A DNA stretch of 64,000 bases from a virus (lineage: Duplodnaviria; Caudoviricetes). The DNA lies in the IMG/VR virus record IMGVR_UViG_3300021411_000006, positions 9,241 through 73,240 of that record; one strand, written 5' to 3'. Of this stretch, positions 9,227-46,129 are shown piece after piece. Position numbers and translations under genes: made by a program. Positions within the stretch are counted from its first letter, which is position 1. Each line of letters begins with the position of its first letter. The notes below the pieces were generated by a model that was given only the letters and a program-made list of their open reading frames with translations, searched no databases and had not been told where the DNA came from.

Positions 9227-9483
9227 CCAAACAGGCTGAACTTGGCCCGCAGATCTTCCGTAACATCTTCCCGAGTCGCAAACCGCAGTATCTTATATGG
9301 TACACCGCTTTTGGAAGTGATTTCATCCGCCAGCTTTATATAGTCCCGGATTCGCTTCTCATCCGCGGCAACTAGCGGCATCCAGGTGTCACCAAGAAGG
9401 GCACCGATTACCCCTTCATCCCCGTCTTTTGGGTCAATAGCGACAAAGGCAAATACCTCTTTAATTATAAACGGTCCTGGCAT
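9223..9483 (-). CDS. Small hypothetical protein coupled to the integrase
   Basis: TGATG overlap with the integrase stop at 9483. Confidence 0.65.
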   Translation of the reverse strand: MPGPFIIKEVFAFVAIDPKDGDEGVIGALLGDTWMPLVAADEKRIRDYIKLADEITSKSGVPYKILRFATREDVTEDLRAKFSLFG

Positions 9484-10694
9484 CACGATACTTTTGATTG
9501 TTGAAAGAATGGCAAATTTTGAGCGAAGTCGGCAGCGTCTTCCGGGGTGACCTTATTATACTTGGCCAGGGTGCCCGCCACTTTGATCCCGGTCAGCTTC
9601 ATAACGATGGCATCGGCTACCCCGTTTTTCAGCAGGTTGGTAATAAAGCTCCGGCGCGCGGTATGGTTGGTAATCATCTCCCACTTTTGTTTGTCTGTAT
9701 GGACCTTCTTGCCGCCTTTAGTAATACTGTGTATAATCCGTTTGGTGAGGCCAGCGTTTTTGGCGACTACCTTTATCTCCCGGTTAATTTCAGTGTCGGT
9801 GATCTTTGGCGGGAACCCGGCGTACTGTGCAAGAATCTCTTTTACTAGTGGATGAGCTGGGATAACGGCTTTTGTTTTAGTCTTCTTGCTGACAATAGTA
9901 ATACGCTCTTCGTCGTAATGTTTGCTCGCCAGTACCAGCAGATCGCTTACGCGGAGACCGGTATAGCAATCCAGAATAAACCAGTCTCTCGCGACTGCTT
10001 CCCGAGGGGTCGCCTTTTGCATGCGGAGCAGTTTTATTTCCATCTCCGACAGCGCGATGGTTGTCGCCTCTTCAGTAAGCCGCTTAAATTCCTTTGGTAA
10101 AGAAAGGCCGCAATGGTGGCAAAGGGTCTTCCAGTTCTTAATGATAGATCCGATATAGTTGGTCGAAAGCTTTTTGGCCTGGCACCAGAGGATAAATTTT
10201 TTGTAGCTGTCCATGTTCACATCCTGAAGGCGCATTTTTGGCATAAACTCTTCCAGCACCGTTACCTGGAATTTGATACCGCGGATTGTACCAGGAGAAT
10301 ACCTTTCTTCTTTTGGGGTTAATACAATTCCTGCCGTCATTCCTTGTACGATAGTGCGCCAGCGATCAAACAAGTTTTCTCTCTTTTGTTCCCCAGTCGG
10401 TTCGTTTTTTTTTTCAAATAAACGATCCAGCATCTCTTTAAGCCCAGCTTTTGTAACCTCTTGGTCGGAGGTAGCACATTTATCGGCATAAGCGTCGACG
10501 GCCTTAATAACTTTATTCACCCGGCTATTTACGCCCTGTTTGTTACTAACCTGATCCTTTTTATTCCAGTCTACTGGACGTATGGATATATCGGTATAAT
10601 ATTTTAACTTTCCGTCAATGCACTGGAATAGCAACCATATAGAAGTCTCTGTAGTCGCATCGGGCCTTTTAAGGAAGAAAGATACTTTTGCCAT
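9483..10694 (-). CDS. int: Tyrosine integrase (likely start ATG 10694, 403 aa)
   Basis: Catalytic R in YTGLRVSDL, HxxR in HTARRSF, Y in LAKYNKV; arm-binding-like N-terminus MAKVSFFLKRP. Confidence 0.95.
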   Translation of the reverse strand: MAKVSFFLKRPDATTETSIWLLFQCIDGKLKYYTDISIRPVDWNKKDQVSNKQGVNSRVNKVIKAVDAYADKCATSDQEVTKAGLKEMLDRLFEKKNEPTGEQKRENLFDRWRTIVQGMTAGIVLTPKEERYSPGTIRGIKFQVTVLEEFMPKMRLQDVNMDSYKKFILWCQAKKLSTNYIGSIIKNWKTLCHHCGLSLPKEFKRLTEEATTIALSEMEIKLLRMQKATPREAVARDWFILDCYTGLRVSDLLVLASKHYDEERITIVSKKTKTKAVIPAHPLVKEILAQYAGFPPKITDTEINREIKVVAKNAGLTKRIIHSITKGGKKVHTDKQKWEMITNHTARRSFITNLLKNGVADAIVMKLTGIKVAGTLAKYNKVTPEDAADFAQNLPFFQQSKVS

Positions 10695-10875
10695 AGTGGG
10701 TAATTTAAAGTGTTTCGTTTGGGGTAACTGCTGGGGTAACAAATATAGTCGACATTTCTGTATAAAAATCGCTTCTACGTTGATTTATTTTTGTTTAAAA
10801 GGCTTTGCTGTGGTAGGTTTCGGGCAATAAAAGCGACGAGAAAGCAACTAATTAAAGGTGGACATTAGCGCTATT

Positions 10876-28309: not shown

Positions 28310-30340
28310 CTATGCGATTTTAGATAGTTGTTGTTTTAGTTTAAACCTGGGGAAGTAGTCGGTTATTTTTTTCAAGCCCGTACCTTCCGTGCGGAGGCCG
28401 CGGCTACGACACGCCATCTCAACCCACAAACAGGCCATGCCGATATCAAATTTTTGGGTTTTGGTTACATCAAATTTTATCAGGTCATTCAGCAGATCGA
28501 TAAAGAAAATTTTATCGGAGTTGTTCTCTACCTGCTCTTCCACAAAAAACAGGGCTGTGTGCTTATTGTCTTCCGTCGCCGGTATGCCAGCTTCTTTGTA
28601 ACCAGGCAGGCGCTGGAGAAAAGGGCCATATCCACGATCTTCAAAGTATCGGATAATACCGCGCTTGTTATTTTCTACCAGGATCTGACAGCCGAAGTAA
28701 ACGGACTGTTTTATCATATCCTCCCAAAGGATGTCGGCAGTCAGTGGCCGGGCCAGGTACTTTACGACGTAAGCATTAATGAAGGGATCAGCATGGTTGT
28801 TTATATTGCTTATTTGCTTCACCAGGCTGGCACCATTGCTTCGCCTGTTGTCTTCGGTCATGTTGTGATCGTAAGGATCGCAGCTGGACCCGAAGCGATG
28901 ATTATTTTTAGGGAAATAAAGCGTACCCCTTTTTTCCAATAGGTTTGTCTCTTCAGCTTTTAGCATGAACGAGCGCAGAATCTCCCAGCGGCCCTGGGGA
29001 TCTTTTTGCCAAAGGACCTTTGTATCTCTTTCTCCATTAGCCCAAACGAAATTGCCGCGCTCAGTAAGCGAGTCTTTATAAGGCATGATCCCGGAGAGGC
29101 GGTCGTTTAGTTTTAACAGGTTAAAGTGACAGGCATCGTTTGCGGTTTTAAATGCCTCTTCCGCGTATAGCGGTTCTTTCCTTATCAGGTCGATAAGATC
29201 GGAAGGGTTATCTTTTTGCGATGCCCGGTCCGCCATGATGGAAGCAAGCGTTTCGGCTTCTTGTGGTTCGCCGTAAATATCAAAGTCTCCGCTACGGGCA
29301 GCGCTCATAAAAAAATGGTACAGGCCGCTTTTGGTTTGCCCGTTTACTTCTCTTTCTGCCGGGTTGCTCTGATACCAAAGCTCATCAAAGCGGAAGCGGA
29401 CCCCGATCTCTTCAACTGTTGAAGTCACGATCATCTTACCGACAATGCGACGCTTATTATCAAGACAGCAGTGCTTTAAAACCAGGTGCCGCTTAATTAC
29501 ATCGTGTTCTACTTTGCCACTCTCATCCAACAGTAAACGGTACGTTTTTGTACCGTCATAAGCTTTTGGTTTTGCATCGCGGTAATCCAGCTGGCTTTTA
29601 AGTTCTTCGCTTTTTAAATTTCTGGTGGCTTCCTTACCTTTTTTGGATGTCTTATAAAAACGCAGCTTGCCTTTTGGTGTGCTACCTAAACTGTCATCCC
29701 ATATTGGCCGGAAAAAAGAAGGGAGTGATTGAAACTGTGGTACGATGGCTTTATCAAAAACATCCTGAGCATCGCCCTGGTTTTTGGATTGAATACCACC
29801 CAGTGCCCGCTTTGTTCTTGACACGGCTTCGTAAACAATACATGCCCCGCGGTATGACTTACCGTTACGGCGCTTACACACTTCCAGTAATCCAAAACAA
29901 TTCGGATCTTCTACACAGTATTGCCAGAACATAAAATACTCCAGGTCGATTCTACGGAAATCGGGGAGACCGGTGTCGAGTGGCCAGTAGTTCAGGAAAA
30001 AATAAAAGATGCCTGGGAGATAAACTGGATCGCCATTGATGTACACCCATACGCCGTACATGCGCCTGCGCCATTCGCGCTGCCGGATCGACTCCAGTAT
30101 ATTGTTGACGTAAAGGGGTTCTGTTTTACAGCGTTCAGCTTCCAGGTCGGCAGCTTCCTCGTAGTCGTCCGGGATCGTCTGCGGCTCCCAGTATTGATTT
30201 TTTGCAATGTTACTCCGCTTAATGATATCAACCGGGCCGATTTCACCGGTGACTGAATGAGTGCCAAAGCCAACAGGGGGTATCCAGCAAGTTAATTGCT
30301 GTACAGTCATGCAGCTCCCGCCTGGGATCTTTTTATACAT
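28310..30340 (-). CDS. terL: Terminase large subunit
   Basis: Walker A KRRNGKS, Walker B LLLDESGK, nuclease CDPYD and FDIGMA. Confidence 0.9.
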   Translation of the reverse strand: MYKKIPGGSCMTVQQLTCWIPPVGFGTHSVTGEIGPVDIIKRSNIAKNQYWEPQTIPDDYEEAADLEAERCKTEPLYVNNILESIRQREWRRRMYGVWVYINGDPVYLPGIFYFFLNYWPLDTGLPDFRRIDLEYFMFWQYCVEDPNCFGLLEVCKRRNGKSYRGACIVYEAVSRTKRALGGIQSKNQGDAQDVFDKAIVPQFQSLPSFFRPIWDDSLGSTPKGKLRFYKTSKKGKEATRNLKSEELKSQLDYRDAKPKAYDGTKTYRLLLDESGKVEHDVIKRHLVLKHCCLDNKRRIVGKMIVTSTVEEIGVRFRFDELWYQSNPAEREVNGQTKSGLYHFFMSAARSGDFDIYGEPQEAETLASIMADRASQKDNPSDLIDLIRKEPLYAEEAFKTANDACHFNLLKLNDRLSGIMPYKDSLTERGNFVWANGERDTKVLWQKDPQGRWEILRSFMLKAEETNLLEKRGTLYFPKNNHRFGSSCDPYDHNMTEDNRRSNGASLVKQISNINNHADPFINAYVVKYLARPLTADILWEDMIKQSVYFGCQILVENNKRGIIRYFEDRGYGPFLQRLPGYKEAGIPATEDNKHTALFFVEEQVENNSDKIFFIDLLNDLIKFDVTKTQKFDIGMACLWVEMACRSRGLRTEGTGLKKITDYFPRFKLKQQLSKIA

Positions 30341-30976: not shown

Positions 30977-33900
30977 TTAAGGTCGATACATATAAATCCG
31001 GTTATCTTTCAAAAACTTAACAAAGTCCGAAAACTCCTGTTCTGTTGCGTCTGCCTTGTACAGATCAACGATGGCTTTTTTCGTTTCGTTTGACTGCACG
31101 TTAATGATCTGGTTGGCAAACATTTTCTCTTTTGCCGACTGTGCCAGGTTCTTTACATCATCCTTTTTAAGCAGCACGATTGCCTTTGATGCTATAGTCT
31201 GCATATCACGGCCATCCTGTTCAGTTTGCGGCGCATCCTTGCCCGTGTAAGCCTTGAACGTATCAAAAATCAGTTTCCGCATATCTACCTCTCCGCCTTT
31301 TACTACCGAGTCGGTTTGCGCGTCCAGCGCTTTCTTTAAATCCACATCGATCCCCTGCAACCGGATTGCTGCCTTGCGTTCCTGTTCGCTCTGTACTTTA
31401 TCCAGGGCTTCCCGGTCGCCGCGATCAGTTTCAAAGTAGATACGCCGTAAAGCTGGTATCATCGATATGATCTTTTCTTTTGTGGACATCGTGCCGTCAT
31501 CGTACTGGGGCACCCGGATACCAAGTTTGTTAAGGCTCCACTTGAACATATCACCCAGGGCCTCTTTGCCGCCCATTTTAAAATTGCGGTCACCGATAAC
31601 ATTGCGCTTTTTAAACTTATCATACGGGTTTATATCATTAACAGCATACTCCCACCACTTGCTATACAGATCGACTCCGGATTGGTAGTCTGGTAAGCGG
31701 TTTACTACGCCGTCGAGGACTCCCCGTATCTTTTGTTTAACGCTGGTCTTTTCGGTCAGATTTTGTATGTTATTCCAGGTGAATGTTTCAACGTCGTCTA
31801 AAGGAATTTTTAAACCCTTCGCTTTGCCAGTTTCTGTTACGCCAAGTGGGATGAGCATGTAGTTACTACGGTTATAAGATCCTACTTTTTCAAACCAGTC
31901 CTCCAGGTCCTTGCCGAACAAACCGTTTTTAGCTGCGGCAGTCAGCAGCGCGGGGATACCAATAGTCAGGCCGACATACAACCAATAAGCTCCTTTTCCT
32001 TTCGGAGCGGTTGCGATACCAGCATCTGTACGGAGGCCCTGTAAGATCACGGACGAGAAAGGTATCCAGGAGATGAATTTCTTTGCGCCAAACCTTTCGC
32101 TGTAATTCGGGGTGCCGATATAGTTTCTGGTATAGTAAGCAGCTGCCTCCGGACCCATGTGCTTTTCCAGGATCTTAAACATAGCAACCTTTGTTCTCAT
32201 CTCTATATGAGAACCTGGCTTGGCCAGAAAATATTCGGGGATTATTAATGCCAGGTCACGGATCTTGGTCATCAGCGTCCGTCTTTTACTTATACCCAGG
32301 TGACCAGAAAGGAAATCGTAGTGAGATAAAAAGTTCGCCATGCCGTTATAATTCGCATCAAATCCCGCGAACAAAGCGGACTCCGGATTTACAGCGCCGT
32401 ACTCCAGCATGCGTTTTGCAACACCTGTAGGCTCGTGCTTAAAGAAGCTCTTTGTATCGTAATAAGATGCCCACCAGGACTGAGCATATTCGGCATGTAT
32501 TTTTATGAAGTCTCTTTTTTGCAGCGCTCCGTTTGCCGACAGGATAGCTATTGTGTTTTTTATTGTCCGCTTACTATCTTTTACCGGATTTACAATAAAG
32601 ATAAAGCCAGGGTTGTACTTTGTCCATGCCATCCGGAGCGGAATTGCGGCAGCAGAAAGCATTTCGTTTACCAGTGATACTTTTTCCGGAGGGTGTGCGT
32701 TATAAACTTCCGCTATATACTTTTCGGTAATAAAAATCTTATTCTTCCCCCCTTGCTTATACCGGATATATTCCTGGCCAGGTTTAAGTTTTACGCTTGG
32801 GTTTCCGCGGAAGTCATAAGCGCAAGCTATGACGCTATCCGGATCAACCTTTTGAAGCGACTCTTTACCGATAACAATCGCACGGTTTTTTGATGCCGCC
32901 CGCTGAACCATAACCATTTTTACCATCGTCTCCAGGAAAGGATTGGCAATTTCACCAAGTCCACCCTGTATGCCCAGCATCTGCGCGCTCTGAATCAACT
33001 CGGTAATATATTTTACCGGCTTGTAGGTAGCGTAGTTGAATTTATTTTTTTCTGCCTCGTCCATTTGATCCCGGCTCATTAACCCGGAGTCGTAAGCGTC
33101 TTCTATTGTATTAAAACCAAGTTCATAAAAATTGTCAAGGGCCTCCTGTATAACGTCCTGCTGGGCTGAAGTATATTTATCCAGAACCTTTTGAATCAGA
33201 TCAAGATTTTGTTCGTCGGTCTGCAAACCAAGTGGGTTGCCTTTCCCCTTCCGTGCTGGCGACATATTACGCGTGTACTGCACGATAAGACCTACATCAT
33301 CTAAACTTACTCCAGCATCACGAACCGGTTTTACTGTTTTAGTATTGTAATTATTCAACATCAGCGCCGCAGGTGCCTTCCACATTTCCATTTGCTCAAA
33401 AGCATTCCTGGTTTCTTCGTATTGGCTTAATTTGTTGCCAGTCTTCGTAGTATCCAGTTTGTCTCCAAGCGGGCTAAACACTGAAAACATTTCGCGCTTT
33501 ACCCTGGCCCAAAGTCCTTCGTTGCGCTTCTCAATTTTCAAAAGATCCGCGCGCTTCGCTTCAGCCTTACGGTAACCTTCAATAGTATTTTTTTCTCTTT
33601 CCGCTTTCACTTTCTCCGGATCGGTAAGCAGATCCATCAGGTCCTCGTACACAGCTTTGAAAGCGGGCTTTTGGTCCAGGTAATTCATAAACGCCTGGAA
33701 AAACATGGGAGCTTTTTTCTCCAGCTGGCCAGGGCTGTTAAAGAGCCCGCTTATCATATCGGCGTATATCTCGACGGAAGATTTACGATACTTCCGAAAG
33801 CCTGGGCTTGCGGTCGCTTCATCGTATGGCCTCCAGAGCTTACTAAACCTGTAAGCTTCCTCGTAGATTTTTCTTTCTTCCCACAGCATTCTTTTATTCA

Positions 33901-36900
33901 TCTCGTCACGAATGCGATCTTTTGCCCTGTCTCTCCAGCCTTCACCTTTTGTAATAACTTGTATTTTGTTGCCGGTTGGTATCTTTTCAATCTTGGTAAA
34001 CTTTTTCAACATGTCATCGATGAGCCCTTTCATGGCTGCGACTACGATCCGTTTTTTATCCTTCGTGCTGAGTCGCTGAATAAAGTCAAGTAAGGCAGGG
34101 TTGTTTATACCAGCCTGCACGTCATTCCAAACGGCCAGCACATCATCAGGAGTAAGTCCGGTAACCTTCTCTATATATTCATCTTCCTCGGTAATAATAT
34201 CGTCGTCCGGCTTGGCTTTCTCTTCCGCAGTGATCCGGTCGATATCGGCTTGGGTAAGTGGGCCCGGTCCACCTGGTTCTTTCGGCAAGAATTTTTCCAT
34301 GAAAGCCTTTAACGAGGCGATCCTTCCCAGGATATTACCACGACTCAGGGTTTCGTCAGGAATAAAATCGACAAAGTGGCCAATCTCGTGCGCCATTGTT
34401 TTCATCAGGTCGTCGTAGTGCGCCGGGTTAAATAGCTCCCGGTTAAGCACGATCTTTTTAAGCGCCGGGGAGAAATACCCGAAAGCTGTGGCCAGTTTTT
34501 TTATCTCCGGATATTTGCCTTCCGCAATAGTACGGGCCAGCTGTACCAGCTCCGGGAAGTCTATCGGCATTAAACGGTTATCGGTGGTCGCTTCTTTTGG
34601 TATGTCGGAATAGTGGCCAGTCGCGAACTGATCGACATAATCTTCAGCCTCCTTTTTGGACATCGCTGTACGCTCCTGGAGAATATCTGTTATATCCTTG
34701 TCGGACATACCAGCGGCTTTTTGTTTCTTTACCCACTCTTCCACCTTTGCGGCTTTGTCGCCGTATTCGGCTTGTGGGTCAAACAAACTGGTTTGTCCTT
34801 TCGCCTGCCTGTCTTCATCACGGGATTTCACCTGTAATTTTTCAACAGCAGCTTTTGCTTCATTCACTTTCAACCTGAGAGGATCAAGAATGTTTTTTGC
34901 TTCATCCCTTTTCACACCGAACAAAGACACCTGTTCACTACCGCCAAACATGCCGCCCTGGGCAGCTTGCGTTTTTGCTATTTTATCTTCGGCATCGCGT
35001 AAGTCTTTTTGCGCTTTCGTAAGAAGTGCCTGTGCGGCTTTTAACTCATCCTTTAATCCAGTATTACTTAATTTATTTGTGCCATATTTTTTCTGGACAT
35101 CATCCTTTAATATTCCCTGGTCCGCAGCGCTGATATAATCGTATGCGCCTTGTACATCTGGTCCGCCGCCGACTACATTGATATAATCAAACAGGGCTAT
35201 ATTAGAGACTCCGCAGGTTTCCATCATCGCCCTCAGCTCGCCCGTAACCTCGTTAACTGGCCTGTTACCGTAAAGGAAAATAGTCGTAGCTGCTGCATGG
35301 CCTGCAAAATTTTCCAGCATTTCCTTGCTGTTCATCCCGTCCTTAAAAACATAGTTGCCGATAATAGAACTCTTGGCATCCGCGATCAACATGCCCGCTT
35401 TTGGAATCGCGGAGAAACGGAGACCGTAAATAACCCCGGCAACTTCTTCGGAATTAAATGGAGGCTCCGAAATTGGAGCGGATAAAGCTTTCATACCGTC
35501 GAGCTTATGTACGGCCAGCGGTTCGCCTTCGGCTGGTTTTTCTTCCCGCTTAAAAATGCCTTCCTGGTTTCCGTATTTGTCAAGCAACACGTACTCTTCC
35601 TTATAAGTATCCATTATAAGGTGTTCCATCTCTATACCAAGCTCGTCCATCATCTTACCAGTACCCTTCGTTAAGCCTATATCAGCACTACTGGGGGTCA
35701 TCTGACCGGATGGGTGGTTGTGGATGAGGTATGTTTTTACGGCACTGAACTTTTTAGCACCGGCAAGGATCATTTTGCGATCCATAGGGGTTTCCGTAAC
35801 GGCACCCATAGAAACAAACTGAATGTGGCTGTTACCTTGCTTATCTACATGGACGGCAAAGCCAAACTCTATTGACTTGTCCTCCAGTAAGCGCATGATG
35901 TGCGCTACATCGGCGGCACTTTTTACCGAAGCCGTTCCTGTGAATCGTAGCCCGTGTTCTTCGCTCCAGACTTGTTCGACTGTGCGGATGTTATGCGAAT
36001 CGTTGGAAGGTGTTTCGCCTGGCCGTTGTACTGTACCGGAGATGGTCCCGTACTCAGCTGATCCGTTGATACTTTCGTATTGTACGGCTTCGCTTTTGCC
36101 TTCTTTATTTTTAATGGTTCCTTCATGCTGCGTGGGATTATCAAAATCTAATTTAATCTGCTCTTTGGCAGAAAGGTCGTTGCCAAAAATATTGTTCAGG
36201 TCTTTTCTTGCTTGCTCTTTAAGCGCTTCATCAGCGCCGGGAGCGTTCCCTGCTCTTTGAGCGCCGCCTTCAGTGCCAGGTCGTCCGCCAGCGTCTCCAG
36301 GAATTTCTCCCGGCGCTCCGGTGGTATCGTCTCCAGTGTCTTCGTCGCGGACGGGTTCGCCGCTATGTTCTGGCGTATCTTCTCTATCAATATCGTCTTG
36401 TCCTGGTTCATTTTCTTGGTCATTAAAGTTATCGGAACTTTCGTCATTTTCCAAAACCTCTTGTTCTGCCATCTCTTTTAGCCACTGATCTTTTTCCGCC
36501 TGTGGCATAGCTTCGTAATCAGCGTCTCCGCCTTTATAAGCCTCGTCCGGTGCTACATGCTGAGATGCAGCGAGTTTTGCTATCGCTTCGCGCCCGTTCC
36601 CGGAGCTAAGTGGTATGCCAGTCAGCTCCGCAAACTTGGTTTCTGCCTGGTGGTGTACTTCGGATTTTACAGTGCCGTCCGGATCGATCCCCCAGGGAAA
36701 GCGCATCATAAACTCAGCTACATCATCGGGGGTTACTTCCACACCTTCGCCATGCTGGGAGATAGAATTTGCGATATCATCGAGGGACCGGCCCTTTTTA
36801 CTGAAATAGTTTTTTGCGACAGATCCTGAAATAAGATTTTTATCCTTTACTCTTTCGAAAGACTCCTGCTTTACCTTACCGATCCCTTCAATAGCGATAG

Positions 36901-39900
36901 CTTGTTCAACCGAAGACAATTCCTGCGGTTGTCGTGGAAGCTGTAACCACGTCGATGCAATTTCAGCAGGGTTTGCACTATTATCCACTACCCACTTTGC
37001 AGCGTCCTCGGCACTATTGAAATCTGGTGCCTGGTCCTGCGGAGCAAGTTTGCCGATATTGTAGTTATATTTTTTAGCATGCTGTAGCAGAAAATTATTA
37101 TACCCGGTTTTATTTCTCTTCACCAGCTGGCCGTTGGAGTATCTTATTACCCGCTTGCCGCCGACATTAGTCACCTTGTACTTACCGTGTATTAGAGCTG
37201 GCTGGTTGTATATTCCGGCACCTGGTTCGCTGTTTATCGCATTCACTAAAACTTCCTTATCAGGGAAGGCAATAGTAATAGCGCGGTCGACTTCCGGATT
37301 ACTGATCGGAGCGCCGCCAAACTTATTCGCCTTGCCGTCGTCATCCAACCCGTATTTCTGTTTTGCCAGCCCCAACAATACTTCTTTTGCCTTCGACGGA
37401 TCTTTTTTAAGTTCCGCTCCGTAAGCATCTTTTATATTACCGTTTTCAACTTCGGATAAAAGGATCTCTTCGGGAACCTGGCTTTTTTCTTCTTCTTTCG
37501 TGGCGGGTTCTGTTTTTTGTTCTACGGGTTTTTCCTTCTTTTGCTCTTTCTCCCACTGCCCGTACTGCGCTACCAGCTCATCTTTTTTTACCTGGTCTGT
37601 CTCCGCAAAAATTTTCTCTTCCCACTCCTTATCCGTCTTGGGATCTTGGGGAAGATTATCGACGGGTGGCGGGACCTCGCTATCGATAATCTCTTCTTTT
37701 GTTTTTTGACTGTCGCCAATCAGCTTTTGTATTTCTTTTACTTTTTCTTCAGCCTTTTTCTTCAATACCGGTTCGCCTTCCTGGTCCGCTTTCCCCTGGG
37801 CCTCGGCAGCTTCAGTCTCCAGTCTCATCTCGTTTGCAGTTTGCAGCAAATAAGATTTTTGCTTTGCTTCAGGCATATCCTGCTCGTCCAGGGATCTCTT
37901 TACTTTATTCAGAAACAAAACTTTTTCCAGAACCTTTGCGACCTCTTCTTTTGTCATGCCGCTAAAATTATCGTTCTCGGCAAGTGTACGCGCAAAGCGG
38001 CGCGGACTACTGGCCACATCCCAAACGGCATCTTTTGTGAAGTTTCTATTTTTAAAGTCATGGTAAGCACCGATCAGGGAAGGCGCGAAGCTCGCCACTG
38101 CGAATAATTTTAATACGTCTTCGTCTTCGCTGGCCGGGTGTACCTGTTGATATTTCTGCTCGTTCAGGCCCAGGATTTTATCCATGCCCTGCTTAAACTT
38201 CGTTATAGCCAGGATCTCTCCCAAGCTCTTGCTATATCCTTTCGTAAACAGCCCAGCTGCCTCCAGGGATTTTTTAAACCAGTTGGTAGCAAGTTCTTTC
38301 TTTGCTGCCATTGCGATATTCTCGCTGCTTAAAGCCTCCAATACATCTTTTATACTTTTCTTTCCTACACCCATTACCTCGCTGATCTTATTTGCAGGCA
38401 ACAGGTTCAGCATTGCCACATAAGAGGCAGCAGTCGTGTACCCGCTAAGTATTGCCTTACCTGGTTCGCCTGGATATTTCGCATCGCCCTCTTTCAGTGC
38501 GTCACCCAGGAAAGTAGATGCCGCGACACCTTTACCGATTGCGGCATTTAATGCAGGCGAAGGATTGAACGCTGTACTTGCAGTGAGACCACCTGTAAAC
38601 CCGGCCAGCCCTTTGGCTACATTACCGGTCGCGGCCATCGACATTAGAAAGCCCCCGAAATCAGATATCTCCCCGATGATTTTGTAAGCGCCTTTCTCAC
38701 CAGCGCTCACCTGTGTCGCTTCATCGTTTATCGACTCCCTTATATTTTCGGAGGCTGTTTGGTTTGAGAAAGTGTTTTTTAGTCCTGTCAGCTGCTTTTC
38801 GATACCACCAGACAAGCGATTCAAAAATCCAGGAACATCGATATATTTTTTCAGATCCTTACTTACGATCTCGTCGTATATCTTTTTCTTTGTCGGGTTG
38901 TTCGCGTACAGATCCGCTGCAATCTTATCGGTGATCTCCTGGTTTTTGCCAGAGTCAAAATCGGCGAAGTAACTATTTTTGTGCAGCTCCTGACGCTTCC
39001 GGCTAACCTCATTGGCCACCACGTTTACACCGAAGTCAGGAAACTCCTTTAGCAGGTTATTGGACAGATGGTAATACTCTTCCTGGTACAGGTTCTTTGG
39101 TCCGCCGTAAACATTCGGTGCCCCGGACTCAACAAAGGCTGGGATGTTACGGTCTTGTAAGCCCCTGGAAACTATCTGGCCCATCTTCGCATTACCGATC
39201 AGCTCACGGTAATCGATCATGCCGTTAATAAATTCATTTGGGTGAGCCATCTCCAGGGCTTTTACTTGCTCATCAAAGTGCGGGTTTTCGCGCCGATATT
39301 TTTTCAGGAAATAATCTTCCAAGTTTTTGCTTTGCTCAATCTCGCTGACAGTATTATCGTATTCAGCAATTTTTTGCTTTGCCAGGTCAAAGGTTTCATT
39401 GCCGTCCGGAGCTTTGCCACCATTGGCAGCGATTTTTGCATCGGCATATTTTTTTGCCTCCAGACCATTGTTGAAGGTGTACTCTTTTACATAGTTTTGA
39501 ACGGCGTTACTTTTGGCCAGGCCGTCGTAAAGTTTATTATGTTTAATGGTATAGTCTTCCCAATCGTTCTCTGCCTTTATTTTATTGCCAGGTGTTTTCT
39601 GTGCAGTCGACTCGCCGGTACGGAAAAACTCATTGTTCAGTAGTGGGGTAAAGGCATCGGATGCTTTTTTGTTTTTCTCCCGGATCGGATCAAGTATCGA
39701 CTTTACAGGATCGTCGCTACCAACTTCTTGTTTAAACGTATCGACAGCTGATCCCAGCTCGTCGCTGACATGGCCAGCCTCGGGTATTTTGATCCGGTGT
39801 ACCTGGTTTGCGATATCTCCAGGTGTGCCCAGCTTTTCTGGGTTTAAATATCTTTTTCTGCCGTCCGCTTCATTCAGGTATGGAAATTCCTCTGGCTTCT

Positions 39901-40171
39901 TAACGTTTGGCGATGGGCCAGCGGAAGTAGTAGGCTTTGAAGAAATCTCTGATACGTCCCACCAATTTTTCCCAGCTTCTTTTTTTTTTAATTCCAGGGA
40001 TGATTCAAAATCGGAATAGTCCAGGAAAAGCCCTTTGGTAGTCTTTTCTGTACTGAACAGGTTAAAAACTTCCTTAGAATTTCTGGTAAGCTGATCCCGG
40101 AAATCGCCCTCGTCCAAAAAGATACCGCTGGACTTAATCGCTTCGTAGGCTTCTTTTATTCTATCTGGCAT
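30977..40171 (-). CDS. Giant polyvalent/ejection protein (3064 aa) with JAB/RadC-like and zincin (MPTase-like) domains and an LPD38-like C-terminus
   Basis: LIHNHPSG (~35704-35727); degenerate second JAB-like unit (~35150-35470); HEIGH (34376-34390) with distal VEIYAD; acidic linker ~36230-36450. Confidence 0.8.
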   Translation of the reverse strand: MPDRIKEAYEAIKSSGIFLDEGDFRDQLTRNSKEVFNLFSTEKTTKGLFLDYSDFESSLELKKKEAGKNWWDVSEISSKPTTSAGPSPNVKKPEEFPYLNEADGRKRYLNPEKLGTPGDIANQVHRIKIPEAGHVSDELGSAVDTFKQEVGSDDPVKSILDPIREKNKKASDAFTPLLNNEFFRTGESTAQKTPGNKIKAENDWEDYTIKHNKLYDGLAKSNAVQNYVKEYTFNNGLEAKKYADAKIAANGGKAPDGNETFDLAKQKIAEYDNTVSEIEQSKNLEDYFLKKYRRENPHFDEQVKALEMAHPNEFINGMIDYRELIGNAKMGQIVSRGLQDRNIPAFVESGAPNVYGGPKNLYQEEYYHLSNNLLKEFPDFGVNVVANEVSRKRQELHKNSYFADFDSGKNQEITDKIAADLYANNPTKKKIYDEIVSKDLKKYIDVPGFLNRLSGGIEKQLTGLKNTFSNQTASENIRESINDEATQVSAGEKGAYKIIGEISDFGGFLMSMAATGNVAKGLAGFTGGLTASTAFNPSPALNAAIGKGVAASTFLGDALKEGDAKYPGEPGKAILSGYTTAASYVAMLNLLPANKISEVMGVGKKSIKDVLEALSSENIAMAAKKELATNWFKKSLEAAGLFTKGYSKSLGEILAITKFKQGMDKILGLNEQKYQQVHPASEDEDVLKLFAVASFAPSLIGAYHDFKNRNFTKDAVWDVASSPRRFARTLAENDNFSGMTKEEVAKVLEKVLFLNKVKRSLDEQDMPEAKQKSYLLQTANEMRLETEAAEAQGKADQEGEPVLKKKAEEKVKEIQKLIGDSQKTKEEIIDSEVPPPVDNLPQDPKTDKEWEEKIFAETDQVKKDELVAQYGQWEKEQKKEKPVEQKTEPATKEEEKSQVPEEILLSEVENGNIKDAYGAELKKDPSKAKEVLLGLAKQKYGLDDDGKANKFGGAPISNPEVDRAITIAFPDKEVLVNAINSEPGAGIYNQPALIHGKYKVTNVGGKRVIRYSNGQLVKRNKTGYNNFLLQHAKKYNYNIGKLAPQDQAPDFNSAEDAAKWVVDNSANPAEIASTWLQLPRQPQELSSVEQAIAIEGIGKVKQESFERVKDKNLISGSVAKNYFSKKGRSLDDIANSISQHGEGVEVTPDDVAEFMMRFPWGIDPDGTVKSEVHHQAETKFAELTGIPLSSGNGREAIAKLAASQHVAPDEAYKGGDADYEAMPQAEKDQWLKEMAEQEVLENDESSDNFNDQENEPGQDDIDREDTPEHSGEPVRDEDTGDDTTGAPGEIPGDAGGRPGTEGGAQRAGNAPGADEALKEQARKDLNNIFGNDLSAKEQIKLDFDNPTQHEGTIKNKEGKSEAVQYESINGSAEYGTISGTVQRPGETPSNDSHNIRTVEQVWSEEHGLRFTGTASVKSAADVAHIMRLLEDKSIEFGFAVHVDKQGNSHIQFVSMGAVTETPMDRKMILAGAKKFSAVKTYLIHNHPSGQMTPSSADIGLTKGTGKMMDELGIEMEHLIMDTYKEEYVLLDKYGNQEGIFKREEKPAEGEPLAVHKLDGMKALSAPISEPPFNSEEVAGVIYGLRFSAIPKAGMLIADAKSSIIGNYVFKDGMNSKEMLENFAGHAAATTIFLYGNRPVNEVTGELRAMMETCGVSNIALFDYINVVGGGPDVQGAYDYISAADQGILKDDVQKKYGTNKLSNTGLKDELKAAQALLTKAQKDLRDAEDKIAKTQAAQGGMFGGSEQVSLFGVKRDEAKNILDPLRLKVNEAKAAVEKLQVKSRDEDRQAKGQTSLFDPQAEYGDKAAKVEEWVKKQKAAGMSDKDITDILQERTAMSKKEAEDYVDQFATGHYSDIPKEATTDNRLMPIDFPELVQLARTIAEGKYPEIKKLATAFGYFSPALKKIVLNRELFNPAHYDDLMKTMAHEIGHFVDFIPDETLSRGNILGRIASLKAFMEKFLPKEPGGPGPLTQADIDRITAEEKAKPDDDIITEEDEYIEKVTGLTPDDVLAVWNDVQAGINNPALLDFIQRLSTKDKKRIVVAAMKGLIDDMLKKFTKIEKIPTGNKIQVITKGEGWRDRAKDRIRDEMNKRMLWEERKIYEEAYRFSKLWRPYDEATASPGFRKYRKSSVEIYADMISGLFNSPGQLEKKAPMFFQAFMNYLDQKPAFKAVYEDLMDLLTDPEKVKAEREKNTIEGYRKAEAKRADLLKIEKRNEGLWARVKREMFSVFSPLGDKLDTTKTGNKLSQYEETRNAFEQMEMWKAPAALMLNNYNTKTVKPVRDAGVSLDDVGLIVQYTRNMSPARKGKGNPLGLQTDEQNLDLIQKVLDKYTSAQQDVIQEALDNFYELGFNTIEDAYDSGLMSRDQMDEAEKNKFNYATYKPVKYITELIQSAQMLGIQGGLGEIANPFLETMVKMVMVQRAASKNRAIVIGKESLQKVDPDSVIACAYDFRGNPSVKLKPGQEYIRYKQGGKNKIFITEKYIAEVYNAHPPEKVSLVNEMLSAAAIPLRMAWTKYNPGFIFIVNPVKDSKRTIKNTIAILSANGALQKRDFIKIHAEYAQSWWASYYDTKSFFKHEPTGVAKRMLEYGAVNPESALFAGFDANYNGMANFLSHYDFLSGHLGISKRRTLMTKIRDLALIIPEYFLAKPGSHIEMRTKVAMFKILEKHMGPEAAAYYTRNYIGTPNYSERFGAKKFISWIPFSSVILQGLRTDAGIATAPKGKGAYWLYVGLTIGIPALLTAAAKNGLFGKDLEDWFEKVGSYNRSNYMLIPLGVTETGKAKGLKIPLDDVETFTWNNIQNLTEKTSVKQKIRGVLDGVVNRLPDYQSGVDLYSKWWEYAVNDINPYDKFKKRNVIGDRNFKMGGKEALGDMFKWSLNKLGIRVPQYDDGTMSTKEKIISMIPALRRIYFETDRGDREALDKVQSEQERKAAIRLQGIDVDLKKALDAQTDSVVKGGEVDMRKLIFDTFKAYTGKDAPQTEQDGRDMQTIASKAIVLLKKDDVKNLAQSAKEKMFANQIINVQSNETKKAIVDLYKADATEQEFSDFVKFLKDNRIYMYRP

Positions 40172-40173
40172 AG

Positions 40174-41739
40174 TTATTTATATTGTCCGCCATCAGCAAG
40201 GAACTGTTGCCGCTGTGCGGGTGACATTTTTTTATACTCAGCTGTCGTTATCGTTTTGCCCGCTGCTTTCGGGGGAGGTTTCGGCCCATTGGGATTATCC
40301 TTTATGATCTCCTGTCTTTGCGGTGCCGTATTATTAAAATCTTCATCGATCTGCACCTGTTCCAATGGCGCGATCACCTGGCCGGACTGTTTGTCGTAAA
40401 TATTAACCGTGCCATCAGCTTCCTTTTTCAGTTTCACATCTCCCTGGCGGAAAGACTTATCCCATATCCTGCTACCCGATCCGGGAGCGATGTTGTTCAC
40501 CTTTTTAATAATATACTCCTGTATGCTTCCGTTCAGCGATGACATTGGGATGTTGCCTGTAGCGTCGGCTGCACCGACGATCTTCTGGTAAACCGGGTTG
40601 TACACCTTCGTCTTATCGCCAGTATTGATCGTAGTCCTGTAACTATAGTTCGGGTTGCGCGACTGCTGTGCATTGACCGGTTCTTTTGTTATCCTTTCAT
40701 CTGCCTGGTCGAAAGCAACTTTACGGCGTACCACTTCCTCGTCAGGGACTTCCATTGTAGAAAGGATCTGGTTGGCCAGGTCTTTTTGCATGCTCAGGCG
40801 CTTGGCCACTGGAATTGATTTTAAACTCATCCCATATTTTTGATCCAGTTGGTTACTGGCTTGTCTCAGGGCATCGTATTCGTATTGTTTTTTTATGGTG
40901 CCTAGTTCACGCTTTACACCCTTCTCCAGCTCAACCTTACGCCCAATATTTGAAGTGAAGTCGATGTAAGCGTCTTCAGGTAATACCTTCACTTCCTTTC
41001 CGCCGATTGTCGCGGGCTCTGACTTAGTTACTACTTCAAAAGAATAGTCTGGATTTTGCCGCAGCTCCTGGTATCTCCCGTTGTATTTTGTTTGGATCTG
41101 CCTGAAACCGATTGTTCCATCCGATCCTTTTGCTTTATAGTAATCGGTATTTGGTACGGAGTCTTTTGGAAAGTCGTAAAGTTTTCCAGCATTATTCACG
41201 TTCAGCGCATCCGGATATTTTTTAAGCACGTCTATTAGCAGGTTACCATTATCAGCGCCAGGCTTGCGGCCCAATAACTCCAGCGTCATCAGGTCCCTTA
41301 CTTTATTTTGGTCCACGCCATCCCCCTCTTTTACAGTCGCCAGTTGTTTTTCCAGGTCACTCATCCCGTTCTTAAAAGAGTTTTGCAGGACATCAAGATC
41401 CCGGACAGAAGCGGCGACATACTGATTTATTTCAGAGTCGGATTTCCCTTCCCGGTACATCTTTTCTACAGCCGCCATAGTTTCCTCAGCTTTTTTACCG
41501 ACTACTAAATCAGGTTTTACCTGATCGGTGCCGGTAATGCCAGTGTTGATCTTATATTCCCGCAACGGCTTTGTTAACCGCTCGTGGTTATCGTCGGCAT
41601 CTTTACGAAGCTTCGCCGCCAGTTCCGCTCTTTTAATTCTTACAGCCTGGTCCTTTAACCCCATCTCATCACCCTGCTTCAACACCTCCCAGGGGGAAGG
41701 GGTATTTTGTTCCAGGACTGCGCCATACGGTGTAATCAT
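40174..41739 (-). CDS. Putative ejection/cargo protein (521 aa)
   Basis: Charged helical protein between the pilot-like gene and the giant gene. Confidence 0.55.
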   Translation of the reverse strand: MITPYGAVLEQNTPSPWEVLKQGDEMGLKDQAVRIKRAELAAKLRKDADDNHERLTKPLREYKINTGITGTDQVKPDLVVGKKAEETMAAVEKMYREGKSDSEINQYVAASVRDLDVLQNSFKNGMSDLEKQLATVKEGDGVDQNKVRDLMTLELLGRKPGADNGNLLIDVLKKYPDALNVNNAGKLYDFPKDSVPNTDYYKAKGSDGTIGFRQIQTKYNGRYQELRQNPDYSFEVVTKSEPATIGGKEVKVLPEDAYIDFTSNIGRKVELEKGVKRELGTIKKQYEYDALRQASNQLDQKYGMSLKSIPVAKRLSMQKDLANQILSTMEVPDEEVVRRKVAFDQADERITKEPVNAQQSRNPNYSYRTTINTGDKTKVYNPVYQKIVGAADATGNIPMSSLNGSIQEYIIKKVNNIAPGSGSRIWDKSFRQGDVKLKKEADGTVNIYDKQSGQVIAPLEQVQIDEDFNNTAPQRQEIIKDNPNGPKPPPKAAGKTITTAEYKKMSPAQRQQFLADGGQYK

Positions 41740-41761: not shown

Positions 41762-42355
41762 TTATAACCCTGCTAAGGCCATTGCACTTGCCGACCCAGC
41801 GCCGCCTCCACCACCGAAAGCGCTGCCTGCCATCGACAGCGATCCGCCGATACCTTGCAGTGCGTTAAAGGTGTTCTGTGTTGCTACCGATCTTATTCCA
41901 AGTCTTTGCTGTAACTGGCGAAGCCTATCGGCCCAAACCTTATCGCCTTCGTTAATCATTGTGTTCTGTGCGCTCATTACTGTACCGGCACGATTCATTT
42001 TATCGGCAGATTCTTTCGCGGCAAGTTGTGCGAAAGCATCGTTACTTCCGCCCTGGAGTCCAGCGATGGTTGCAAGTACCTGCGAAGAGTCGGTCGCGTT
42101 CCTTTCGGTCGCCGCGGTTGCGTTGGCCTGGCCGGTCTCTATATTTTGCTCTTCCTGTGTTGCACCAGCCATCCTGCCCTGGTATAAATTTTGTGCAAGG
42201 GCAAGCTGTTGCTGTGCGTAAGGATCAATGGCTTTTACCCCAAGCTGATTGAGGTCCTTCATGTTCCTTTTATTTTGTTTTGCGCTCACGATCATACCGG
42301 CAATATTTGTCAGTAATGACGCTCCGGCTGCTACAGCTGCTTCTGGTCCTGGCAT
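41762..42355 (-). CDS. Putative DNA-pilot/ejection protein
   Basis: Ala/Gly/Gln-rich with hydrophobic Gly-rich ends; follows the tail nozzle as in podoviruses. Confidence 0.6.
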   Translation of the reverse strand: MPGPEAAVAAGASLLTNIAGMIVSAKQNKRNMKDLNQLGVKAIDPYAQQQLALAQNLYQGRMAGATQEEQNIETGQANATAATERNATDSSQVLATIAGLQGGSNDAFAQLAAKESADKMNRAGTVMSAQNTMINEGDKVWADRLRQLQQRLGIRSVATQNTFNALQGIGGSLSMAGSAFGGGGGAGSASAMALAGL

Positions 42356-42373: not shown

Positions 42374-45300
42374 TTATACAAATTGGTGGCCTGCCGCTAC
42401 ACGGTGGCCTATATTTATAAATTTCAGTTGTAACAGTTCGTCGGTATCCCACTCTGCCATTATATACATCCACGGTCCCCGCATTCTATCACCTTTGCGA
42501 AGCTTCTCCAGTGGTCCACCGATAACGTTAGGGCTTAACCGGTCCCGCAGGATCGGTGCGTAATAAATTCCTTCTCTGGTCCTGAAATCAGTATCCTCCA
42601 GGTCGCTGCTTTGTACGTTCGGTGTTTCTGTTCTCAGGTGGACAAAAGTTGGTGGCATATTTGCCTCAACTGCCAGTGCCAGTTCGGTTTTTATTTTACT
42701 TGGCGTGTCAGCGGTCCTGGCAACAAACATTATTCTGCTCTTTCCTGCATCGCCAAAGAAAGTATTATAGGCTGTGTTTTTACCTTGCTCCCATACCTTT
42801 CCATCTTTAAACGCAAGCAGGCTCGACCCAACAGTACAAAACATCTCAGGCTCGTATCCGTGGGGTATTGACCACTTGCTCTCATTGATCCGGAAGACAA
42901 GCACTTTCGGCAGGCCGTCGTATATATCGTATGGGTACGGATACGTGTAATCATTCGCTCCGACGTTCACCTCTTCGCCTGTATCTTCAAGCTCGTGGCT
43001 TTCTTCAGTAGGCACAAGTCCGGAAGCTGGAGTTATCAGCACCATATAAGCCAAAATCGATGCAGCAAAAGCCGCCTCGTTTGCCCCCATGAATTGAAGG
43101 TCACCGAAAGAAACCATTGTCGGTGCAGTACCGAGAGTTGCGTATGCGGGCAAACCGGTGACGATTGCACCCAGTACAGCAGTATTAGTGATCGCGTACC
43201 AGCCAGTAGTTACAACCGAATTAAGAAAGACAGCATAAACAGAGTATGCCTGGTATTGACCGGCACCACGGTTTGCAATGTATTTCATTGTAAAAATAGG
43301 AATGCCTGTCAGCCCAGTACCACCGTAGTCGATATATCCTTTTGGCGGATCTTCTTCGGTTTGCGGCAGCGCCCATAAAAACTCATTGTGATAAGGGTCG
43401 ACACCACCAAAAATAAATCTCCGCGTTCCAACGTCGTCAGCAGCTTCCAAACCCTCCAGTCTTTTACAGAAAGCCTGTATAGCCCGCTTCATCCCCAGGT
43501 CGCTGATCGGAAACAATCCGTTGCCTGCATAGCGGACAGCGCAATAACTTTTCACATCGATCCAGGCGACCTGGCCGTTATGCTGCACTACGCTTTCGGG
43601 ATTGTTGGTACCATAGTCACCTTTCAAAATATTCACTTGCCCGATGAAGCCGGTTGACTTCGCCAGAAAGCTGTTTCCTTTTTGGTCAAAGAGTTCCACT
43701 TCTCCCAGGTAGATACTTGCCGTTTGGTTCTCACCGATTGCAAGCATCACACTACCTTCCGCCTGTACCTTACTGGCAAGGATCAGTTTTCTGATCGTAC
43801 CCATCTCAGTGGCAAGTATCTCTTTGTTCAGCGCTTCAAAGCCACTGAGCCCGTTTGTTTGTGTGCCGGGTATGTAGACGTTACTAAAAGAAATACCTGT
43901 CTTTTTTCTTACCTGGCCGAGCTTTGTAATAACATTTGGCCTGCCCGCATCCGTGAACCACCGCTGATAATAAAGGTCATTAGGATTCATCGCCTCTGCA
44001 TAATATGTCGTTGAATTATAATTCCTGGTAAGCGCCACGACATCTCCGCGGAAAGATCCAAGCAGTACCGAGTAGGTTCTCGCAGGATCTCCGGGAGTGG
44101 TGACTGGGTATAAATCGCCGACCTGGAAAAAGGGCTCTTGCTCACTGGTTTTATACGGCGAATAGATCCTGTAAACAAATTTCACCGTCGTCGCTGGCAC
44201 AGTATTAAGTGTACCTACATCGGTTGCTTTAAGCAGGATATACTTACCATCTTGTCCGATAACCGGCAAATTGTAGGTGGTGCTATCCTGGCGGATCAAT
44301 ATACACTGATCGCCATCCGTCAGGGTGTACCCGAGCCCAGCTCGTAACAGTGCCGACGTGTCGAGGGCAACGGCTACAACAGTATTGCTAAAGGTCAGCG
44401 CAGTATATTCCAGCAATCCGGTAGTAGGATTCCTGGTTGCATATTTTGTCGTCTCATCGTATGCTGATATAAAATTTCTCGTCGTCAGGTTCAAGCTGCG
44501 GTCGACGCTATAATAATAAGCCCAGTCTGGGATTTCAGTTGCGGCAGCTGCATTATTTAAAGTCCAGTCGATAGAAGCATACCCGGTAGTAAAGGCAAAG
44601 TTTCTGGCGGGTACTGATAAAGTCCCACTTCCTTCCACAATTCCACACTTGCGGAGATATCTGTCATAAAAAGTGATACCAGCCTTATATTGTGACTGTG
44701 GAAGCATCAAAGGATAAGTAGATGTACTAATCCCCGTTATTGAGCAAGCGCTTGCGGTATATGTAAGAAAAGGTCCATCCCAGCGCCACGTACCTGCTTC
44801 AGCAGTGGCCAACACAACCGCGGTCATATCAGCGCCGCGGAATGCAAGTCCTGAGAAAGCTACTGTAGAAGGTGCCGCGGCGAGAGTTGGGTAAGTCCCG
44901 CTTGTAGTATCTATAAGCTCAGTTGCTGTAAGAGCGTACCAGCCAACTGGAACAACTTCGGTGAGGTAAACATAATAGCCGATGTAAGCATACGACTCTG
45001 ATCCTACACGACCGTTACGGTGTTTAAGGATAATAAGATTTTTGCTCAGTGTCGTAAAGCCCAGGGTAATAGCGGTCGGTAAGGCAAGTGCCAAAGAGGT
45101 TGTAGCTGGAGTGTCATACCCTTCTGTATTATCTGCCAGTATGTTCCTGTTTTTGCCGGGAGCCATCGTGCCGGAGAACAGTGGCACAGAGTGAAACGGC
45201 CTTACCATATCGGCGGAAGCAAGCGTCTCACCGGTTACGTCCCCGTAAAAATCATAGCTAAGATCCTGCGTATTAATTAATACATTTTCAGCAGTAATGT

Positions 45301-46129
45301 TTCTGTCCCACTGTTTAATAACAGCAGCTTTCTCGGTTGACTCATCCAGGCGGACGAGCTGCACCAGCCTTACTGATTGGGGAACGGTTTCAGTAATGTC
45401 CAGTTTTACTTTTATAAAATTGTAATTATCCGTTGTCAGGTTGAACAGACTGGCACGACTCCAACCGCTAAGGACCGCTTCCTCGCCATCAAAGTAAACA
45501 TAGCGAACAGCAAACTTATAGCTGTTCTTATCGACGAAGTTGTTATTATAGCCGCTGTTGTATGATTTTGTTATCGACGGCGGGTAAGCGCATGGCTTAC
45601 GGATCAGCGTGATCTCAGTTTCATCGATAGGCAAAGTAATCGTATAGTCTTCGTCATACGGCGATCCCCCGGAGGCTTCCATAAATACTCCCAGGTTTAA
45701 GCGGCGAGGTTCATTATTGCCATCGGTAAAGTAAAGCAGCCCGTTTATTACATGCGCGCCGTTAATCAGCTTGTAGCGGTCAAAGTTCAGCCCTTGCGTA
45801 ACATCGCTATCCTCCAGGACCATGTACCTGGTTTGGTTAAGCAGATCGTACAAGTATATGGCATGGTCATCGTTGGAGTTCCAGCCAAAGAAGATGGCAT
45901 ACCGGTCGGTATCATCCGCACAGGCACCTATACAAATGTTATCCCCAGCGGGAACCGCTTGCTCAATCGTCGTATTCCCTTTCACGCTTTCAAAACACCC
46001 GGTTGCCCCTAACTCAGTAGAACCAAAGCGAATGTTTAACCCGTTGATAAAAGCCTTCGCCGAGACCAGGTGAGGGGCCGTTTCAGCATCCAAAAACTCA
46101 TTCCATATTTTTTTTTCACTCAAAGGCAC
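42374..46129 (-). CDS. Tail nozzle/stabilisation protein (P22 gp10 / crAss muzzle-like)
   Basis: 1251 aa beta-rich; ESVKGNT start, LLYFTDGNNEPRRLN, C-terminal REGIYYAPILRD; lies after the ring genes. Confidence 0.75.
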   Translation of the reverse strand: MPLSEKKIWNEFLDAETAPHLVSAKAFINGLNIRFGSTELGATGCFESVKGNTTIEQAVPAGDNICIGACADDTDRYAIFFGWNSNDDHAIYLYDLLNQTRYMVLEDSDVTQGLNFDRYKLINGAHVINGLLYFTDGNNEPRRLNLGVFMEASGGSPYDEDYTITLPIDETEITLIRKPCAYPPSITKSYNSGYNNNFVDKNSYKFAVRYVYFDGEEAVLSGWSRASLFNLTTDNYNFIKVKLDITETVPQSVRLVQLVRLDESTEKAAVIKQWDRNITAENVLINTQDLSYDFYGDVTGETLASADMVRPFHSVPLFSGTMAPGKNRNILADNTEGYDTPATTSLALALPTAITLGFTTLSKNLIILKHRNGRVGSESYAYIGYYVYLTEVVPVGWYALTATELIDTTSGTYPTLAAAPSTVAFSGLAFRGADMTAVVLATAEAGTWRWDGPFLTYTASACSITGISTSTYPLMLPQSQYKAGITFYDRYLRKCGIVEGSGTLSVPARNFAFTTGYASIDWTLNNAAAATEIPDWAYYYSVDRSLNLTTRNFISAYDETTKYATRNPTTGLLEYTALTFSNTVVAVALDTSALLRAGLGYTLTDGDQCILIRQDSTTYNLPVIGQDGKYILLKATDVGTLNTVPATTVKFVYRIYSPYKTSEQEPFFQVGDLYPVTTPGDPARTYSVLLGSFRGDVVALTRNYNSTTYYAEAMNPNDLYYQRWFTDAGRPNVITKLGQVRKKTGISFSNVYIPGTQTNGLSGFEALNKEILATEMGTIRKLILASKVQAEGSVMLAIGENQTASIYLGEVELFDQKGNSFLAKSTGFIGQVNILKGDYGTNNPESVVQHNGQVAWIDVKSYCAVRYAGNGLFPISDLGMKRAIQAFCKRLEGLEAADDVGTRRFIFGGVDPYHNEFLWALPQTEEDPPKGYIDYGGTGLTGIPIFTMKYIANRGAGQYQAYSVYAVFLNSVVTTGWYAITNTAVLGAIVTGLPAYATLGTAPTMVSFGDLQFMGANEAAFAASILAYMVLITPASGLVPTEESHELEDTGEEVNVGANDYTYPYPYDIYDGLPKVLVFRINESKWSIPHGYEPEMFCTVGSSLLAFKDGKVWEQGKNTAYNTFFGDAGKSRIMFVARTADTPSKIKTELALAVEANMPPTFVHLRTETPNVQSSDLEDTDFRTREGIYYAPILRDRLSPNVIGGPLEKLRKGDRMRGPWMYIMAEWDTDELLQLKFINIGHRVAAGHQFV

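Follow-up and report, generated by a model that had tools for sequence, protein, structure and literature searches.

A 3064-residue modular protein, probably of the polyvalent class, in a probable ejection-protein cassette of a distant crassvirus cousin

A virus of metagenomic origin encodes a protein of 3064 amino acids that probably belongs to the LPD38/zincin class of phage-type polyvalent proteins and is probably the last, giant product of an ejection-protein cassette of the podovirus kind. The gene lies at 30977..40171 on the (-) strand of the window, i.e., the whole stretch of 64,000 nucleotides analyzed here, which spans positions 9241-73240 of an IMG/VR virus record of 73,240 bp, rated complete by CheckV. 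A sequence-only reading of this DNA had noticed the 3064-aa protein; its gene is one intact open reading frame without internal stop, and the product has a mass of 341.6 kDa and a pI of 5.7. The protein opens no new category and belongs to a known class, for which the idea of self-processing was also put forward (Iyer, Burroughs, Anand, de Souza, and Aravind, 2017, PMC5512222). Members of this class probably travel inside the virion, to be injected into the host along with its DNA, and from the gene position and the relatives we infer such a delivery, together with an anti-defense role, for the protein described here. Genes for giant polyvalent proteins rank with the largest of phages and with those about which least is understood, and the present one resolves cleanly into modules, with conserved ends, an exchangeable middle and an unusually split zincin.

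The gene is part of a tightly spaced block encoded on one strand. This block comprises, in order, a muzzle-protein homolog of 1251 aa (42374..46129, (-) strand), a protein of 197 aa whose N-terminus includes a hydrophobic helix at aa 7-25 (41762..42355, (-) strand), a basic 521-aa protein with a stop codon 2 nt ahead of the start of the giant gene (40174..41739, (-) strand), the giant gene itself, a gene for a 191-aa protein, the large terminase (28310..30340, (-) strand), the portal gene (26049-28307) and an SU10-type capsid protein. Outside this block, an integrase and a primase-helicase are encoded; a gene of the tyrosine-integrase type is found at 9483-10742 of the window. The best tblastn matches of the terminase and muzzle designate the podophages of Flavobacteriia as nearest relatives, namely Elemovirus, Cellulophaga phi38:1/phi40:1 (Pervagoviridae), Calle and Gundel, and no classified crassvirus record appears among the tblastn matches of the terminase, portal and muzzle. 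Judged by these matches, the phage is not a classified crassvirus and its affinities lie with Pervagoviridae and Elemovirus rather than with Crassvirales. Gp97 of phi38:1 harbors a true Pfam crAss_MUZ_C domain (E 1e-18) and the 1251-aa protein of the window is a homolog of gp97, which makes this phage a distant cousin of crassviruses with a common muzzle. The earlier proposal that the giant gene occupies the slot where crAss-like phages encode their virion RNA polymerase thus holds for the position, as the gene is found two genes past the muzzle homolog like the crAss001 vRNAP gp47, but not for the phage itself, which falls outside the classified crassviruses. It looks like a temperate phage with a crass-type muzzle morphogenesis and no virion RNA polymerase.

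The N-terminal part of the protein consists of four modules, which were drawn from an exhaustive HMMER search with aa 1-1200 that yielded 233 cluster representatives. Module A (aa 1-127; 39791..40171, (-) strand) is a short helical domain that also forms the very N-terminus of other giant proteins. It is followed by module B (aa ~150-860; 37592..39724, (-) strand), which is all-helical, has no Pfam model and contains a Gly/Ala-rich hydrophobic stretch at ~500-600, by module C (aa ~890-985; 37217..37504, (-) strand), a small conserved unit, and by module D (aa ~995-1210; 36542..37189, (-) strand), a compact alpha/beta domain modeled with a pLDDT of ~95. An acidic, Gly/Pro-rich and disordered linker (aa 1211-1394; 35990..36541, (-) strand) then leads to a RadC-type JAB/JAMM domain with a complete metal-binding motif (aa 1395-1530; 35582..35989, (-) strand) and, directly after it, to a companion domain (aa 1531-1700; 35072..35581, (-) strand). 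Linker module L (aa ~1701-1830; 34682..35071, (-) strand), made of two long helices and bearing three Qxx[L/M]F motifs, precedes the zincin peptidase domain (aa 1865-2180; 33632..34579, (-) strand), and the protein ends with a conserved, mainly helical and possibly LPD38-related C-terminal region (aa 2181-3064; 30980..33631, (-) strand). The coiled-coil and acidic linkers noticed before are indeed present, with 31 D/E for 6 K/R in aa 1201-1300 and long charged helices at about 770-880 and 1700-1790. Modules A, B, C, and D and linker L correspond to no curated family, and a single-sequence search of viral contigs for related loci gave no match.

The position of these modules is conserved among homologs: in 94 of the collected proteins, module B starts at a median distance of 113 aa from the N-terminus, and the C-terminal module ends at a median of 14 aa before the C-terminus (35 proteins). 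Between them, the relatives carry varied domains, including RadC, TPR, N6_N4 methylase, ddrB-ParB, helicase C, ART-PolyVal, InPase, SLT, LPD23, and DnaJ. According to these sequence comparisons, conserved N-terminal modules and a C-terminal zincin/LPD38-like module of ~1200 aa flank swappable middle domains. Module D is itself common in the middle of giant phage proteins and has no match in Pfam, the PDB (profile search included) or the ESM Atlas.

The class assignment made from the sequence is borne out by these homologs, which are giant phage proteins with hallmark polyvalent domains: ddrB-ParB, LPD38, LPD23, ART-PolyVal, DNA methylases, helicase, SLT, and RadC are all found in proteins sharing the N-terminal or C-terminal modules. 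As in phage-type polyvalent proteins, the gene is a giant one located in the late or virion block, its product is a single long chain with a zincin HExxH and a downstream Glu, a possibly LPD38-related C-terminus and enzymes of the swappable kind, and its relatives exhibit varied effector domains. The structural likeness to this type extends over the whole 1200-aa C-terminal module, for which the model gave 94 matches at E<=0.001 in BFVD; the top ones are C-terminal pieces of proteins annotated as "Large polyvalent protein associated domain" (E 1e-32 to 1e-9), some of them named LPD38. The protein differs from those described by Iyer et al. in that the Pfam models of LPD38 and MPTase-PolyVal both miss it, in the insert of ~200 aa within the zincin and in its RadC payload.

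The LPD38-like end announced by the sequence-only reading is supported in part. On the one hand, the profile of the C-terminal module aligns with P0003 (hhalign probability 97.9, E 5.5e-13) over a stretch that reaches no more than ~55 residues into the LPD38 of that protein, sub-threshold LPD38 matches occur in 4 of 15 homologs, and the LPD38-named proteins of BFVD point the same way. On the other hand, Pfam LPD38 (PF18857) does not match the protein even at E<=1. Foldseek comparison of the C-terminal module with the PDB returned nothing at E<=0.001. The module occurs in phages and prophages across many phyla. Indeed, genome assemblies from bacteria of many phyla contain 31 loci that carry it; three of these loci (L025, L030, and L034, from Verrucomicrobiota, Vicinamibacterales, and Gammaproteobacteria) lie within contigs of 0.3-4.5 Mb and are probably prophages.

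In the zincin of this module, HEIGH at 1928-1932 is the sole HExxH of the protein. To assess its conservation, the C-terminal 1200 aa were aligned once with 27 homologs and once with 14. His1928, Glu1929, His1932, Asp1935, Tyr2128, and Glu2134 are invariant in these alignments (28 aligned sequences); Glu2134 is carried by the motif VEIYAD at 2133, for which the homologs have the consensus S..ELYAD. The earlier suggestion that VEIYAD provides the third ligand about 200 aa downstream of HEIGH thereby gains weight, and Glu2134 is, on this pattern of conservation, well supported as a distant third zinc ligand, separated from HEIGH by the ~200-aa insert. The zincin model aligns with peptidases of the anthrax lethal-factor type, and likeness extends to PprI/IrrE, CapP, SprT, and M48, not to the M15 or M23 wall peptidases. 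Sub-threshold Pfam matches in homologs are to SprT-like (7 of 15) and M48 (6 of 15). The pattern of M48 (HtpX/Ste24), with HEIGH followed by an ELYAD-type motif, is present in the protein and scores 13-15 bits for a gathering cut-off of 20.3; by its motif, the domain is thus gluzincin-like, outside curated M48 membership.

The RadC-like JAB domain is solidly assigned, being matched at 1417-1522 by Pfam PF04002 (E 1.3e-13, 51.4 bits for a cut-off of 22.1), by PDB 2QLC (E 8e-6) and by a PHROG labeled "DNA repair protein." As in the RadC family, the match covers the full-length domain and the E...HxH...S..D motif is intact. Indeed, the JAMM signature, already reported from the sequence, is complete (E1435, H1484-N-H1486-PSG, S1494-x-x-D1497) and makes the domain active-looking by motif. 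Unlike the usual RadC, this JAB is embedded in a chain of 3064 aa and has a companion domain of its own behind it. To our knowledge, RadC itself has no known biochemical activity, and a literature search for RadC in phage counter-defense returned no relevant result. RadC was placed by Iyer et al. in the polyvalent proteins of conjugative elements rather than in those of the phage type (PMC5512222). The companion domain (1531-1700) is conserved and follows this JAB in four proteins. It had been read as a second, degenerate JAB unit, a likeness that proved not to be significant: BLASTP between the two units gave nothing, and hhalign aligned them with motifs in register but at E 0.17, a score reached by 19 of 150 column shuffles. 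The ESM Atlas provided for this domain only low-recognition leads to alpha/beta-hydrolases.

Since crassviruses and N4 have a virion RNA polymerase in the equivalent position, the unannotated N-terminal half could hide a diverged polymerase of the crAss type, similar to phi14:2 gp66. The post-muzzle position is that of crAss001 gp47, and the vRNAPs of crAss phages have diverged beyond the reach of ordinary sequence searches. However, several observations speak against such a polymerase, which we regard as hardly conceivable. The DxDxD motif, which the sequence-only reading had not found in the protein, is absent both from it and from every open frame of at least 200 aa in the 73,240-bp genome. 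In the AlphaFold model of aa 1-1200 (pLDDT 75.1), the chain is all-helical up to residue 980 and continues into the alpha/beta domain at 995-1200, with three short strands only up to residue 1200. The C-terminal model (1865-3064) is similarly helical except for the zincin sheet and a few hairpins, and the double-psi beta-barrels of an RNA polymerase, looked for in both models, were not found. The remaining 660 residues or so (aa 1201-1864), outside the two models, are filled by the acidic disordered linker, the JAB and its companion, and the helical linker. The PDB includes phi14:2 gp66 and the virion proteins of crAss001, and sequence and profile searches against it returned RadC and noise only; fold searches retrieved only generic helical hairpins. 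Moreover, a phage that has an integrase can rely on host transcription. Given these predicted helical models devoid of beta-barrels, a double-psi-barrel RNA polymerase of the crAss type appears very unlikely.

The surrounding gene order links the protein to known ejection cassettes. The order muzzle, small protein, ~500-aa protein and giant protein, in which the small protein of this phage has a membrane-type helix, is kept as in phi38:1 (gp97-gp101) and Elemovirus (gp22-gp18), where the giant genes of that slot are annotated as structural proteins. These giant proteins exhibit no sequence or HMM similarity to the one described here; likewise, profiles of modules B, D, and L and of the C-terminal module found no significant match in N4 gp50-53, phi38:1 gp100/gp101, or the N-terminal part of Elemovirus gp18. 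Searched against BFVD, the N-terminal model weakly matched the first segments of giant "structural proteins" from Gundel_1 (E 3e-5) and Elemovirus (elemoC, E 0.02). The size pattern large, ~200, ~500, and giant recurs on the contigs of two homologs of the giant protein, where the synteny is one of size and order only since BLASTP of the muzzle and of the 521-aa neighbor detected no similarity to the equivalent genes; one neighbor beside a homolog has a weak crAss_MUZ_C match (E 0.0013). In Pelagibacter phage Baldr, the homolog (HMM E 9e-148), a protein of 2329 aa, is preceded by tail tubular proteins A and B and by three small proteins, i.e., it has the position of T7 gp16.

The same arrangement is found in crAss001, where the muzzle gp44 is followed by gp45, gp46, and the giant gp47, and where the giant proteins are predicted to be helical too; yet no sequence similarity is detectable between crAss001 and the protein reported here, which has neither polymerase motif nor barrel. 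The cargo set of crAss001, located downstream of gp44, comprises gp45, gp46, and gp47-gp49-gp50, and mass spectrometry of virions identified gp45, gp46, and gp47 (Bayfield et al., 2023, PMC10172136). Similarly, N4 presents the same size pattern with gp53-gp52-gp51-vRNAP, and N4 gp50 and T7 gp16 are, like the giant protein, the last and largest products of a small/medium/giant cassette past the tail-tip gene. N4 gp50 also has a zincin (Iyer et al., 2017, PMC5512222). It nevertheless differs from the giant protein, with which it shares no profile similarity and which lacks both polymerase and lytic transglycosylase. The 197-aa neighbor has the position and size of N4 gp52 and T7 gp14. An N-terminal hydrophobic helix is a feature of T7 gp14 too. 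As a side observation, the trio of 197-aa, 521-aa, and giant proteins mirrors the small/medium/giant cassettes of T7 (gp14-16) and N4 (gp52-51-50), to whose proteins no sequence similarity of the trio was found.

This likeness to T7 and N4 raises the question of whether the protein is a structural ejectosome or conduit component that stays in the envelope, where its zincin would act on cell-wall or envelope proteins to clear a path for the DNA, with no release of effectors in the cytoplasm. Besides the T7 gp16/N4 gp50 position, the long helical modules with their weak likeness to tape-measure proteins and the membrane-type helix of the 197-aa neighbor would fit such a role, which was also proposed for gp47 by the authors of the phi24B preprint (bioRxiv 10.64898/2026.04.10.717836). 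This gp47, an LPD38 protein of 2811 aa, is abundant in virions and its ejection was proposed (bioRxiv 10.64898/2026.04.10.717836). We nonetheless deem an envelope conduit unlikely, as the zincin is similar to protein-cutting zincins of the cytoplasmic or secreted kind and not to the M15 or M23 wall peptidases, and as the middle domains of the relatives (methylases, ParB, helicase) are DNA-directed and require the cytoplasm. Convincing transmembrane segments are lacking in addition: the hydrophobic segments of the giant protein are weak, with a best Kyte-Doolittle value of 1.49, so that its insertion in a membrane is not evident.

It is also quite improbable that the protein is a late cytoplasmic one that never enters the virion, acting as an assembly or maturation factor or against defenses in the producing cell. 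Packaging is a prediction for this phage and no biochemical study is known for homologs of the N- and C-terminal modules, which leaves room for such a role; but the gene lies within the stretch from the muzzle to the terminase gene, the analogous giants of crAss001, N4, and phi24B are virion components, and a costly single chain of 342 kDa would be hard to explain unless co-delivery were needed.

For a virion-delivered polyvalent protein, the reading that we favor, the following sequence of events may be proposed. The protein would be synthesized at the late stage, along with those of the muzzle, terminase, and portal, and stored in the capsid or the tail lumen. From there it would leave in a partly unfolded state by way of the muzzle-gated tail, either before the DNA or at the same time. 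The helical N-terminal modules and the C-terminal zincin/LPD38-like module would form a delivery chassis for encapsidation, exit and passage of the envelope, carrying in their middle an exchangeable payload, here domain D and the RadC-type JAB metalloenzyme with its companion domain. The zincin would most likely cut the flexible linkers of its own polypeptide, setting this payload free once in the host. The vRNAP position of crassviruses and N4 would then hold a polymerase-free toolkit in this apparently temperate relative, which supports regarding that position as a bay in which short-tailed phages generally carry payload.

Linker L deserves separate mention, as it bears QGGMF at 1738, QVSLF at 1747 and QTSLF at 1793, the only Qxx[L/M]F motifs of the 3064 residues (three observed for about 0.5 expected from composition). 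They are located in Gly-rich flexible stretches, the last two being about 46 residues apart across a helix of ~35 residues. The linker is conserved in 10 diverged giant proteins, with invariant or nearly invariant F, Q, and L positions of the motifs; a search for it in longer proteins, within the range of 161-2000 aa, retrieved none, and it is absent from all 31 genome loci with the C-terminal module. The consensus for binding to the beta sliding clamp, QL[S/D]LF or QADMF, is used by polymerases and by TrfA of plasmid RK2, and this resemblance makes linker L a speculative candidate, with a rather low chance of being right, for a tether to the host clamp. If true, a virion-delivered protein would dock RadC and other payload on the DNA-bound clamps of the newly infected cell. 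Since the linker lies at borders between payload domains, the motifs could equally be cleavage sites of the zincin.

Finally, domain D is also present in small proteins of 230-420 aa (P0134, P0135, P0141, P0161, and P0171), which may be standalone genes or fragments of giant genes, the single contig viewed being 1.4 kb long. Several of these small proteins stop at the same aligned position, at Cys(-Pro-Thr).
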